This document shows, one piece after another, positions 15,320-17,686 of a stretch of DNA of 33,386 bases. Location: positions 1-33,386 of the forward strand of contig CALWTN010000050.1 of assembly GCA_944384475.1 (NCBI GenBank), in the 5' to 3' direction. The position numbers were made by a program, and so were the translations under genes. The first letter of the stretch is position 1. Every line of letters starts with the position of its first letter. Below the pieces are notes generated by a model. That model saw only the letters and a program-made list of their open reading frames with translations, searched no databases and was not told where the DNA came from. Source of the stretch: an uncultured Clostridia bacterium. Its GTDB lineage: Bacteria > Bacillota > Clostridia > Christensenellales > UBA1242.

Positions 15320-15670
15320 CTATACTCTAACGCCAACCACGTGAACATTAACCGAGTCGACAATCATTCCCGTAAAATTTTCCACGCTGTATTTAACCGA
15401 TTTTTTTAGAGACTCAGAAACTGCGCTGATAGACACACCGTATTTCATAATACAGTAAACATCCAAAAAGATTCGGTTATCTATATGGCGAACTTTAATG
15501 CCCTTTGAATAGGACTCTTTATTAAACAATTCTTTGGCGCTGTCTTTAAAGGTTTTTGACACAAGGTCTACAACACCATAACAATCAAGCACGGCAAAAC
15601 CAGCGACAACCCTGATTGCATCATCGCTGATTGAAATGTTTCCGTAATAGTTGTTAGTGTCAACTGTCAA
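15320..15670 (-). CDS. Asp23/Gls24-family envelope stress protein (YloU-like)
   Basis: ...GNISISDDAIRVVAGFAVLDCYGVVDLV... Start reassigned to TTG 15670 (AAGGGAG RBS 8 nt upstream), giving 116 aa. The track's 143-aa form has no RBS. Confidence 0.85.
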   Translation of the reverse strand: MTVDTNNYYGNISISDDAIRVVAGFAVLDCYGVVDLVSKTFKDSAKELFNKESYSKGIKVRHIDNRIFLDVYCIMKYGVSISAVSESLKKSVKYSVENFTGMIVDSVNVHVVGVRV

Positions 15671-15780
15671 AACGATTGCTCCCTTAAATTCAGTCACTTT
15701 TATCTTACTATAAAGAAAAAATTTTTTCAAGCAATTTAGCGGTTGTTTCAAAATGTTTGTTAAAATTTTTGCTATTTTTG

Positions 15781-15809
15781 TTGATTTTACTTTTATTTTA
15801 TGTTATACT
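15781..15809 (+). promoter_or_regulatory. SigmaA-type promoter of rpmB (TTGATT-N17-TATACT with TG extension)
   Basis: TTGATT is at 15781-15786 and TATACT at 15804-15809, with TG at 15801-15802. The AGGAGG RBS follows at 15832-15837. Confidence 0.6.
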
Positions 15810-15843
15810 TGCCTTGCTAAAAAGTCCTAATAGGAGGTGAATC

Positions 15844-16029
15844 ATGTCAAGAGTTTGTGAAATATGTGGTCGTGGAAAAATGACTGGCAAAAAGGTTAGC
15901 CACGCTGAAAATAAAACTAACAGAACTTTTGAACTTAACTTGCAAGAAACCACCATTGATGTTAATGGAAAACCTACAAAAGTTAAGGCTTGCACAAAAT
16001 GCATTAAAACCGCAAGAAAAGCAAAATAA
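15844..16029 (+). CDS. rpmB: 50S ribosomal protein L28 (zinc-ribbon C+ form)
   Basis: [34 protein letters not shown]...CTKCIK. Typical L28 with CxxC...CxxC. Confidence 0.96.
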
Positions 16030-16058
16030 ATTTTGCATGTTTTTTGATTGACAAATCG

Positions 16059-16078
16059 CCTCCTGCGGGAGGTTTTTT
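16059..16078 (+). terminator. Intrinsic terminator of rpmB
   Basis: CCTCC-TGCG-GGAGG (16059-16072) followed by TTTTTT (16073-16078). Confidence 0.75.
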
Positions 16079-16121
16079 GTTGCTATAAATATACGCCTTT
16101 GCTTTGTGTTTTATACCACAC

Positions 16122-16219
16122 GGGCAAGCGCCTGTCCCGTTTTTGCAAAAACGGGACAGCCTCGCTCGTTGTGCCTAGCGAGGCAACATGCGCCGCATGC
16201 GGCGCATGTGCGCTTGCCC
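16122..16219. other. GC-rich 98-nt nested-palindrome element (closed four-way junction); function unknown
   Basis: The outer stem is GGGCAAGCGC/GCGCTTGCCC. It encloses a 28-nt perfect palindrome (16132-16159), CCTCGCT-N10-AGCGAGG (16160-16183) and a 22-nt perfect palindrome (16187-16208). Only 4 junction nt are unpaired. Confidence 0.6.
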
Positions 16220-16223
16220 CCCC

Positions 16224-16322
16224 CTATTTTTCGTCCTTTTTAACAAACGGTTTTAAAAGCGGACGCATCCACTTTGGCGCTTTGATGCAAATGATTTTAA
16301 ATTGTTTTTGCTGTTTTTCCAT
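16224..16322 (-). CDS. Small ORF (32 aa) with a SpoVM-like core; candidate spoVM
   Basis: Own translation: MEKQQKQFKIICIKAPKWMRPLLKPFVKKDEK. The core IKAPKWM..LLK.F..K resembles B. subtilis SpoVM (MKFYTIKLPKFLGGIVRAMLGSFRKD, quoted from memory). It is adjacent to rpmB, as spoVM is in B. subtilis. No convincing SD. Too short for the ORF track. Confidence 0.4.
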   Translation of the reverse strand: MEKQQKQFKIICIKAPKWMRPLLKPFVKKDEK

Positions 16323-16328
16323 GCCACT

Positions 16329-16357
16329 TTTATATGCAACCGCCCCTAAAAATGTTA
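16329..16357 (-). promoter_or_regulatory. Weak sigmaE-like promoter candidate for the small ORF (TAACATT-N14-CATATAAA)
   Basis: Against the sigmaE consensus [T/G][A/C]ATA[A/T][A/T]-N14-CATACA[A/C]T it scores 6/7 and 6/8 with exact 14-nt spacing. The -10 element ends 6 nt before the ATG, which would imply a leaderless mRNA. Confidence 0.25.
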
Positions 16358-16366
16358 AAAAGCATA

Positions 16367-16395
16367 TTGACTATCAGTTATAAATATTATATACT
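16367..16395 (+). promoter_or_regulatory. Near-consensus sigmaA-type promoter of the two-gene OB-fold operon (TTGACT-N17-TATACT)
   Basis: TTGACT is at 16367-16372 and TATACT at 16390-16395, with a 17-nt spacer. The GGGAGA RBS at 16405-16410 and ATG 16418 follow. Confidence 0.6.
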
Positions 16396-16417
16396 TTTAT
16401 GTATGGGAGAAAATAAA

Positions 16418-17686
16418 ATGGAAAACATCAAACACCCAATTTTGGGACACGAATTTAAAAATGAATGCAATCAGTTGATACTCTGCGGCAGAGCATTGAC
16501 GGTTCCATTGAAAATGCAAAGTAAAGAGGGCGATGTAAGCAATTTTGGAATGCTTTTTGAGGACGGAAAATCAGGAGTTGTGCTTCCTCTTGACCTTTCT
16601 TCGCTGGATAGCTACGATTCGTTTATTCAACCACTCGACAAATTGATGCTGTTTGGACATATTGGCAATAAGCAAGGCGAACAAACCTTTGTTGTTGAAG
16701 AGATAAAAAATGCAAACAGAAACCCTGAAGTTTACAACATGGGCTTTGTTTTTGGAACGCTGTATGACGCAAAGAAATTTGTTAAAATAGACGGCCAGAA
16801 ATTTTTAAAAATTGTCATAACTGCTAAAGACCACTTCACAGGAACAGAAGAGAAGGTTACTGTCTACACACAAAATGAAAAACAAATCAGCTATTTTACT
16901 TGCAACGGCATAAAGCGTGGTACCCCAATAGCGGCGCAATATTTTTTAGCCTATAATGCAGCAGAGCAATCTTTTTCGTTTTTGCCAATTTTAATGAGTT
17001 TTGACACCTTTGCATGCTCACCTAATTCAGTTTTTCACACTTACACCCCTCTTCCAGAACAAGAGAGGTTTGATCCTAAGGCAAAGTTCCCAAAAGGAGG
17101 CAACTATGTTACAGCCGTTGGTACAGTGAAAAGCCTGACAGAACAAATAGGTGAAAACAACTATCAAGCAGAACTTTTATTAAAACGAGGCAAAACCTCT
17201 TTTGAGCTGCCATTATTGATGAATCAAAAAACAGCACAGGTGTTTGACGAACACAATAATGTTGGCGACACGACGATTGTGTTTGGCTCGCTTGGTCAAA
17301 ACGTGTTTGGCTTTAACAGCATAAAAATAAACGGCTTCACCAACCTTCAAAAAAGGTTTGGCGATGATTATTCATCAAGCTTTGGGCGTGTGATATTTGA
17401 ACTGGAAGACGTTCCACAACCAGCCCCAAAAGGCTTTTGCAAACATTCAACAAAAGCACCTAGTATAAATAAAGATAAGTTTAAAATCAAAATAAACGGC
17501 ACAACATTTTCTTCAAAAGCTGGAATAGATGTTGCAGAGCAATTTATGCAAGCAAGAAATATGCCACACGCTCCGTCTGGTTATAAGGCGCTCTATACTT
17601 TTGTGCCTGACGAATTTGAAGAGTTGGGCATAACGCAAGCGTTGCCAAAAATAGTTGCAACAGTGCCAATGCCACTGTCAAAATAA
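16418..17686 (+). CDS. Hypothetical 422-aa protein; three tandem SSB-like OB-fold-type modules plus a C-terminal region (pattern-based assignment)
   Basis: Start set at ATG 16418 (MENIKHP..., GGGAGA RBS 7 nt upstream), not the track's 16334. The repeated pattern is N-x-h-x-h-x-G ... h-h-LP-h-x-h ... GD-x-h-x-h-x-GSL, e.g. NQLILCGRALTVP/VVLPLDLS and NYVTAVGTVKS/FELPLLMN/VGDTTIVFGSL. Confidence 0.75.
   Translation: MENIKHPILGHEFKNECNQLILCGRALTVPLKMQSKEGDVSNFGMLFEDGKSGVVLPLDLSSLDSYDSFIQPLDKLMLFGHIGNKQGEQTFVVEEIKNANRNPEVYNMGFVFGTLYDAKKFVKIDGQKFLKIVITAKDHFTGTEEKVTVYTQNEKQISYFTCNGIKRGTPIAAQYFLAYNAAEQSFSFLPILMSFDTFACSPNSVFHTYTPLPEQERFDPKAKFPKGGNYVTAVGTVKSLTEQIGENNYQAELLLKRGKTSFELPLLMNQKTAQVFDEHNNVGDTTIVFGSLGQNVFGFNSIKINGFTNLQKRFGDDYSSSFGRVIFELEDVPQPAPKGFCKHSTKAPSINKDKFKIKINGTTFSSKAGIDVAEQFMQARNMPHAPSGYKALYTFVPDEFEELGITQALPKIVATVPMPLSK

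Follow-up and report, generated by a model that had tools for sequence, protein, structure and literature searches.

The window, by which we mean the whole 33,386-nt stretch of DNA that was analyzed, comes from a chicken-gut Clostridia bacterium and contains a convergent gene pair, rpmB and a 32-codon ORF, with a block of nested inverted repeats between them (Table 1). The small ORF had no Pfam match; we take it to be spoVM by synteny with the spoVM-rpmB-yloU-yloV order of B. subtilis. The convergent layout of rpmB and the small ORF was kept in 17/17 congeners compared. As originally predicted, an intrinsic terminator of rpmB, a hairpin and a T run, lies upstream of the block. This terminator lacks an upstream A tract in all carrier species of the element, and we did not find a minus-strand terminator for the small ORF in 15600-16500. 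Nearby gene content varies among strains. A 422-aa OB-fold gene (window 16418-17686) is missing in some strains with an identical rpmB (L171, L173, L174), and these have a 223- or 232-aa gene directly after the small ORF instead.

Table 1. Features of the rpmB/spoVM intergenic region (window positions; the element spans 16122-16219).
Feature	Position	Strand	Remark
rpmB (ribosomal protein L28)	15844-16029	+	Pfam PF00830, E = 1e-20; convergent with the small ORF
rpmB intrinsic terminator, hairpin and T run	16058-16080 (hairpin 16058-16073)	+	no A tract on the upstream side
Outer closing stem, 5' arm GGGCAAGCGC	16122-16131		pairs with 16210-16219 in RNA and DNA folds, both strands
Hairpin 1, 28-nt perfect palindrome	16132-16159		core conserved across species
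Hairpin 2, CCTCGCT-N10-AGCGAGG	16160-16183		tip decayed in the present assembly
Junction bases CAA, unpaired	16184-16186		C to T in three strains
Hairpin 3, 22-nt perfect palindrome with palindromic loop CATG	16187-16208		
Junction base T, unpaired	16209		
Outer closing stem, 3' arm GCGCTTGCCC	16210-16219		
C8 tract joining the element to the stop codon	16217-16224		length variable
spoVM-like 32-codon ORF, host gene of the element	16224-16322	-	from the ORF list; TAG stop 4 nt from the element

All coordinates and sequences first given for the block were correct. The plus-strand RNA folds at -68.6 kcal/mol (z = -9.9) and the minus-strand RNA at -69.9 kcal/mol (z = -9.5), values that none of 200 shuffles equaled in either case, and both strands form the same closed four-way junction. 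DNA parameters gave an identical fold (-46.2 kcal/mol, z = -10.8). The RNA and DNA folds thus bear out the closed junction predicted for either strand, and the four helices agree with the view that the structure goes well beyond what a terminator needs. At 56-59% GC vs. 39% for the genome, the block is a GC island. Downstream of it on the plus strand is UAUUUUUCGUCCUUUUU (as RNA, CCCCC and then UAUUUUU); on the minus strand, the strand of the host gene, there is no U tract beyond the stem. A tRNA-like cloverleaf was rejected, as the element's arms are perfect helices of 7-14 bp capped by 4-nt loops and ARAGORN called no tRNA gene in 15900-16400.

The element is present in 10 other assemblies of the same species and is therefore not an assembly artefact. 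The perfect 28-nt palindrome of hairpin 1 is limited to the present assembly; the 10 others have T5/A4. Hairpin 2 in those assemblies has a 10-bp stem and a tetraloop, of which the 7-bp form seen here is a decayed version. The tetraloop alleles are CTCG, TGAG, TCAG or TTCG. They differ at up to 3/4 bases, also between strains with identical flanks; flanks are nearly invariant in the species (1% variable). One strain has a G>A change in the 3' closing arm, which gives C.A on the plus strand and G.U on the minus strand, and the C tract next to the stop codon reads C6, C7, C8 or CCCTCCC among the 11 same-species assemblies.

Among the 17 congeners, only G007, G006 and G011 carry an element in the rpmB/small-ORF spacer. 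It is absent from the locus in 13 of the 17 compared, and the spacers of element-less congeners are 45-216 nt long, mostly with a plain terminator. All four species' versions fold as a closing stem plus three hairpins, with hairpin 1 always on the same side. The closing stem is kept despite changes on both arms (GGCGAGCGC/GCGCTCGCC in G007, GGGGCGGGCGC/GCGCCCGCCCC in G011). In G007 and G006, hairpins 2 and 3 are kept as hairpins with unrelated sequences. The sole part conserved across species is GCGCYTGTCCCGTTTT, a stretch of hairpin 1 together with the end of the outer arm. G007, G006, G011 and two metagenome contigs have it unchanged, and it occurs in 4/154 genomes of the genus, once in each. 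Looser searches with this core returned mainly chance matches. A 16-mer of it had at least 120 matches in the genome_contigs collection; the 14/14 Firmicutes matches inspected were by chance, in coding DNA, and a further match (L105) was the G011-like locus itself. A 21-nt degenerate core found two true relatives in metagenome contigs along with two chance matches in high-GC DNA, and the additional matches gained in the 154 genus genomes with one mismatch allowed were again chance, in coding DNA.

That four species share the element and the hairpin-1 core indicates that this copy is old at the locus. It would predate the divergence of the four species, with hairpins 2 and 3 having since been swapped or rewritten. 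A tree of the flanking proteins neither supported nor rejected a single clade of the four carriers. Judged by its cross-species alignment, the rpmB locus alone looks like a conserved structured RNA. This is the setting in which a dedicated gene might be considered, either a strand-specific plus-strand sRNA of ~130-150 nt, as first suggested for the block, or a cis-regulatory element specific to spoVM. A GC island within AT-rich DNA, the TGCTATAAA motif upstream, the T-rich stretch downstream and the hairpin-1 core kept in four species would all be compatible with such a gene. The extended -10-like TGCTATAAA, read as a promoter in the original prediction, is absent from the sigma-70-type sites reported by the scan tool, and the sRNA drew no support from the promoter scan, from Rfam or from any strand asymmetry. 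Across species, the rpmB/spoVM copies lack conserved unpaired nucleotides and conserved internal loops, and hairpins 2 and 3 show no sequence conservation. Given also the empty locus in most congeners, the narrow occurrence of the core, and the ten-member family adjoining unrelated genes that is described below, we regard a dedicated sRNA or cis-element as very improbable.

Searches by sequence gave few leads. When the 98-mer was compared by BLAST with the 755-kb genome it comes from, it matched only itself, so the many copies expected of a repeat did not appear by this route. Rfam 15 had no match overlapping the C50 element (the copy between rpmB and the spoVM-like ORF) at E <= 10 and nothing relevant on nine other copies at E <= 1, and phage and plasmid collections contained no match to the element. 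In a search by architecture, the genome was scanned for GC-rich, strongly folding blocks and the folds were parsed, with a filter that permitted two or more hairpins. The 755-kb genome (G000) contains ten elements of the same build: C18, C9, C14, C50, C67, C35, C37, C49, C38 and C19. Their lengths range from 83 to 106 nt. The closing stem measures 8-12 bp, no more than 8 bases of the junction are unpaired, and 10/10 elements have exactly three GC-rich hairpins. Over all carriers, family members measure 81-132 nt, and a closing stem of 8-14 bp encloses the three hairpins. With identical criteria, scans of the other genomes found four elements plus the C19 orthologue in G007 (799 kb scanned), two in G006 (393 kb) with a third found later, and two in G011 (300 kb). 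None was found in G031, G023, G035, G015, G034, G027 and G038 (900 kb in total). The family was thus found in the same four species that have the rpmB/spoVM copy.

An eleventh scan match, C56:5582-5678, was dropped from the family; one of its arms overlaps a tRNA gene and it sits in a tandem duplication. The surrounding region (C56:5394-5730) is a ~150-nt tandem duplication beside the tRNA gene, in which the tRNA 3' end occurs a second time. It resembles an integration-site scar, and it too folds as a three-hairpin closed junction, one arm of which lies within the tRNA.

The placement of the family is precise. In G000, 8/10 copies overlap, or start 0-4 nt past, the stop codon of a gene with its 3' end toward them; by this measure 3.5% of non-ORF positions are flush with a stop codon (p about 2e-8). 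The same abutment is seen in 5/6 copies of G007 and G006. The host genes are unrelated and include a P-type ATPase, era, ffh, a VirD4-like coupling protein, scpB, a methyltransferase, pepF and the spoVM-like ORF. Two copies are in operon-like gaps. C14 lies between ffh and rpsP, and C49 ends 18 nt before the pepF ATG, leaving no room for a promoter before the pepF start. Read in the direction of the host gene, the 3' arm is followed by G in 7/9 copies inspected by eye, with T next in 5. Two of the copies have further repeats next to them. A near-perfect inverted repeat, TTGTGACAACATGTCACAA (G000 C35:5481-5500), adjoins the C35 copy upstream of a Sir2-family gene and is operator-like. In G007, tandem repeats of ~110 nt lie upstream of the C19 orthologue (C19:10100-10412), each starting with the outer-arm sequence CTTTTTGCAGGGTG.

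We interpret the block between rpmB and the small ORF as belonging to a family of nested, GC-rich DNA palindromes that is dispersed and lineage-restricted, is REP/BIME-like, lacks a RAYT and is probably mobile, a reading to which we would give a probability of about two in three. A dispersed REP/MITE-like repeat was among the options raised at the outset, and the evidence favors it. What did not hold is the expectation that BLAST would expose it; the ten copies were found by architecture only, and their sequences are mostly unrelated.

Gain and loss were followed by comparing G000 with its sister species G007. C50, C37, C49 and C19 are common to both genomes (flanks 72-87% identical). G007 lacks the entire unit at C18, C9, C14 and C67, with 7, 12, 4 and 35 nt, respectively, between the aligned flanks, and G031 has empty sites at C14 and C49. 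No target-site duplication is visible at C9, C14, C18 or C67 when compared with the empty G007 sites, although flanks of 72-87% identity could conceal a 2-nt duplication. At era (C9) the element stands in place of the loop and 3' arm of the G007 terminator hairpin, with the T8 run kept, and C67 is found where G007 has a plain terminator.

Most copies are unrelated in sequence and have in common only modules of 11-25 nt. C35 and the reverse complement of C38 are the exception, being ~90% identical at two unrelated loci and thus the product of a recent duplication. Three copies specific to G000 have CGCAAGGCGCT in common. There are 14-mers common to C18/C14, C14/C50 and G007_C10/G007_C34, compared with a longest shared word of 11 in 300 shuffled pairs. 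The 14-mer that links C14 to hairpin 1 of C50 is GTTTTTGCAAAAAC, and hairpin 3 of the G007 rpmB copy shares a 14-mer with another family copy in G007. G007_C34 and G006_C1 are orthologous by position and unrelated in sequence. The duplicate pair, the common modules and the presence or absence of whole units suggest that elements have been copied between loci and that hairpin modules have been exchanged or rewritten while the build was kept. We infer the mobility of the family from these patterns, with neither a copying enzyme nor a target-site duplication found. The elements would have spread by a copy-and-insert process, with an enzyme other than RAYT, TnpB or IS110. Two further proposals drew no support. 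Flip-flop inversion is not shown by the hairpin-2 loop alleles, which are not exact reverse complements (CTCG vs. TGAG requires a flip and one change). Inverted duplication around a terminator is not supported in its simple form, as hairpins 1 and 3 are unrelated to each other in C50 and in other copies.

REP, BIME and REPIN sequences are described in two accounts as short GC-rich palindromic extragenic repeats located downstream of ORFs, between co-directional or convergent genes (PMC3733652; PMC3116915). The same accounts present them as plausibly transcribed as RNA hairpins, mosaic, and vertically inherited with turnover within genomes (PMC3733652; PMC3116915). The present family resembles them in its extragenic placement behind ORFs, its mosaic modules and its turnover. 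It differs in its unit, a closed stem with three hairpins of 81-132 nt, whereas a REP is a 20-40 bp hairpin or doublet, and it has neither a consensus nor a GTAG or CGTC tag. Its host is also different, a low-GC Clostridia bacterium with a 0.75-Mb genome, in contrast to the REPs of Proteobacteria that are mobilized by RAYT Y1 transposases. The Y1 transposase domain of RAYT-type proteins (PF01797) is absent from G000 (98% complete), G007 and G011, so that three of the four carrier genomes have no RAYT. It is present in G006 and in 17/154 genus genomes. None of the PF01797 genes in the 13 loci (12 genes) examined is directly flanked by a family element, and one element lies ~3.5 kb from the G006 gene. 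TnpB (OrfB_IS605) and IS110 are absent. The partner search covered Y1_Tnp, OrfB_IS605 and IS110, and none of them fits. The family is thus REP/BIME-like in lifestyle and distinct in architecture.

Bacterial MITEs that fold into long hairpins include Correia/NEMIS, RUP, BOX, ERIC and bcr1. The family resembles MITEs in being small and non-coding, with the closing stem (8-14 bp in every copy) in the role of terminal inverted repeats. Filled and empty sites between close relatives, the near-identical pair C35/C38 and lineage-specific bursts are likewise MITE-like. Unlike MITEs, the family shows no target-site duplication, has no autonomous partner among Y1_Tnp, OrfB_IS605 and IS110, and is GC-rich rather than AT-rich. 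The terminal repeats differ from copy to copy, which makes a sequence-specific transposase unlikely. GC clusters and palindromic repeats of yeast, fungal and algal mitochondria are hairpin-forming, mobile-looking GC islands in compact AT-rich genomes. Like these, the family consists of GC-rich hairpin islands that are gained and lost between close relatives. It differs in being on bacterial chromosomes, in its fixed three-hairpin closed junction and in its placement at stop codons. A literature search found no description of the closing-stem and three-hairpin architecture; one may nevertheless exist.

The pairing pattern bears on whether the structure is kept in DNA or in RNA. Over 16 elements the stems contain 424 GC, 186 AU and 13 GU pairs (2%), i.e., 98% are Watson-Crick, and the GU pairs show no bias to either strand or to the host-gene strand. 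G.U vs. A.C mismatches, used as a strand test, were likewise mixed and unbiased. Self-complementary tetraloops are enriched (6/29, p = 0.008), indicating that the palindromes run through the loop. In 28 sequences from three groups, 26% of loop and junction columns are variable compared with 5% of stem columns and 8% of flank columns; loops thus change 3-4 times faster than flanks (p = 3e-5). Template switching is reported to homogenize the arms of inverted repeats and to invert their spacers (PMC8604942, PMC7202029). Watson-Crick stems, fast loops and palindromic loops would fit DNA palindromes maintained by template switching, and would fit a strand-specific RNA poorly. Intrastrand template switching in replicating DNA may keep the arms complementary; it would homogenize them and yield multi-base changes in the loops.

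Some observations pull toward RNA. YNMG is a stable RNA tetraloop motif, and the hairpin-2 alleles CTCG, TGAG, TCAG and TTCG (L167-L176) all match it on the plus strand, in the sense of rpmB, while their reverse complements are not known to match any motif. This fit of all four alleles hints at a constraint on RNA, contrary to a pure DNA palindrome, and it would also be in keeping with a plus-strand sRNA. In group C, the plus strand shows the series C-G / U.G / U-A at one base pair, and orthologous sites retain the three-hairpin build. Transcription through the element is plausible in a G007-like relative, which is represented in three chicken-gut RNA libraries. One 383-nt Logan contig runs from the 3' portion of rpmB through the complete spacer, element included, into 76 nt of the small ORF, and two other contigs end 43 and 70 nt beyond the rpmB stop codon. 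These contigs are unstranded and may include DNA carry-over, so no strand can be assigned.

The principal alternative is that the elements are branched 3'-end RNA modules selected by the host, serving as elaborate terminators, insulators or mRNA stabilizers and built or recruited at gene ends. At C50 such a module would terminate or shield the spoVM-like mRNA, and it would keep read-through transcription of rpmB from extending antisense over the 99-nt ORF. Much of what has been described could be read in this way. The copies are flush with stop codons, and orthologous sites keep the architecture while the sequence changes. The era element replaces a terminator hairpin with its T8 run retained, and C67 takes the place of a plain terminator. 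At the rpmB locus, the terminator has no upstream A tract in any carrier, no other minus-strand terminator was found, and a U-rich tract lies beyond the outer stem on the plus strand in 4/4 carrier species. The C-G / U.G / U-A series on the plus strand and the RNA-library contig spanning rpmB, element and small ORF point in the same direction, the latter with the reservation that it is unstranded and possibly DNA.

Several of these points weigh directly on the mobile-repeat reading. The three-hairpin build is kept at deeply diverged orthologous sites (flanks ~75% identical) while the sequences turn over, and host selection on structure would predict the same. The position of the era element before a retained T8 run suggests real terminator use, and a purely selfish or neutral model gives no explanation of exactly three hairpins. 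Comparison with known rho-independent terminators, including bidirectional ones, gives a similar picture. GC-rich hairpins at gene ends, C9 before its T8 run and the plus-strand U-rich tract at C50 are all terminator-like. The family differs from terminators in having four helices vs. one, and in the position of some copies within operons a few bases before the next start codon; C50 itself lies between convergent genes. A U tract beyond the stem is present at C9, weak at C67, and absent at C14, C37, C38 and C49; most copies have none on the host-gene strand. The operon-internal copies, C14 between ffh and rpsP and C49 before pepF, argue that the family is not simply a terminator, and termination at these sites would be harmful. 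Selection on RNA also predicts neither the 2% of GU pairs without strand bias nor the tendency of loops to be palindromic, and the sister species lacks the element at four sites. On balance we consider host-selected 3'-end modules unlikely as the explanation of the family.

Within the mobile-repeat reading, a local role for the structure is conceivable. The possibility that the block is a 3'UTR structure of the minus-strand ORF agrees with its position flush with the stop codon; this is a trait of the whole family, so the structure is not dedicated to spoVM. If transcribed, the element would make up the first 98 nt of the spoVM-like 3'UTR, where it could hold back 3' exonucleases and also RNA polymerase reading through from rpmB. 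A role at the rpmB/spoVM locus as a 3' RNA structure or as a backstop or insulator can only be inferred. Any such benefit would be a by-product or secondary use and not the cause of the family's existence.

A DNA recognition site has also been considered, in which an extruded cruciform or Holliday-junction mimic would be bound by candidate SSB-like OB-fold proteins, a junction resolvase, or a nucleoid or topology factor. The perfect two-strand symmetry, the strong DNA fold and the fixed number of four arms would suit such a site, and OB-fold genes adjoin the element in this window. The other family copies adjoin unrelated genes and are not beside OB-fold genes, which gives no support to the proposed link to the adjacent OB-fold proteins, and we rate this the least probable of the explanations. 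More tentatively, and with better odds than any of these alternatives, the family may be a distinct and so far undescribed class of bacterial genome element in which the four-way-junction shape, and not the sequence, is recognized and selected. The recognizer could be a structure-specific DNA enzyme of the Holliday-junction type that copies the element, or else the shape could serve at the 3' ends of mRNAs as an RNA module.

Proteobacteria are the best-known hosts of interspersed palindromic repeats, and the biology of REP, BIME and REPIN/RAYT systems is bound to a known transposase. Here a gut Clostridia bacterium with a 0.75-Mb genome and ~8% non-ORF DNA carries ten costly GC-rich elements placed behind stop codons with near single-base regularity, which points to a mechanism of spread or persistence unlike that of REPINs. 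The family also marks a blind spot of repeat finding, as both BLAST and Rfam miss it, and MAFFT was unable to align copies of unrelated sequence. For the annotation of G000, one candidate sRNA is removed.

Several observations concern the assemblies and records themselves. In public run X28, one Logan contig stops precisely at 16132, where the 28-nt palindrome begins; the perfect palindromes of the element seem to break short-read contigs at this spot. The G000 genome (755 kb, 98% complete by marker genes, ~8% non-ORF DNA) encodes spoIVA in addition to the spoVM-like peptide and is very small for a putative spore former. Record CAVCJG010000001.1 (L105/L183), titled Eggerthellaceae bacterium, has a Clostridia-type fakA-asp23-rpmB-spoVM-spoIVA locus. 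Its rpmB protein matches that of G011, and the organism label looks wrong.
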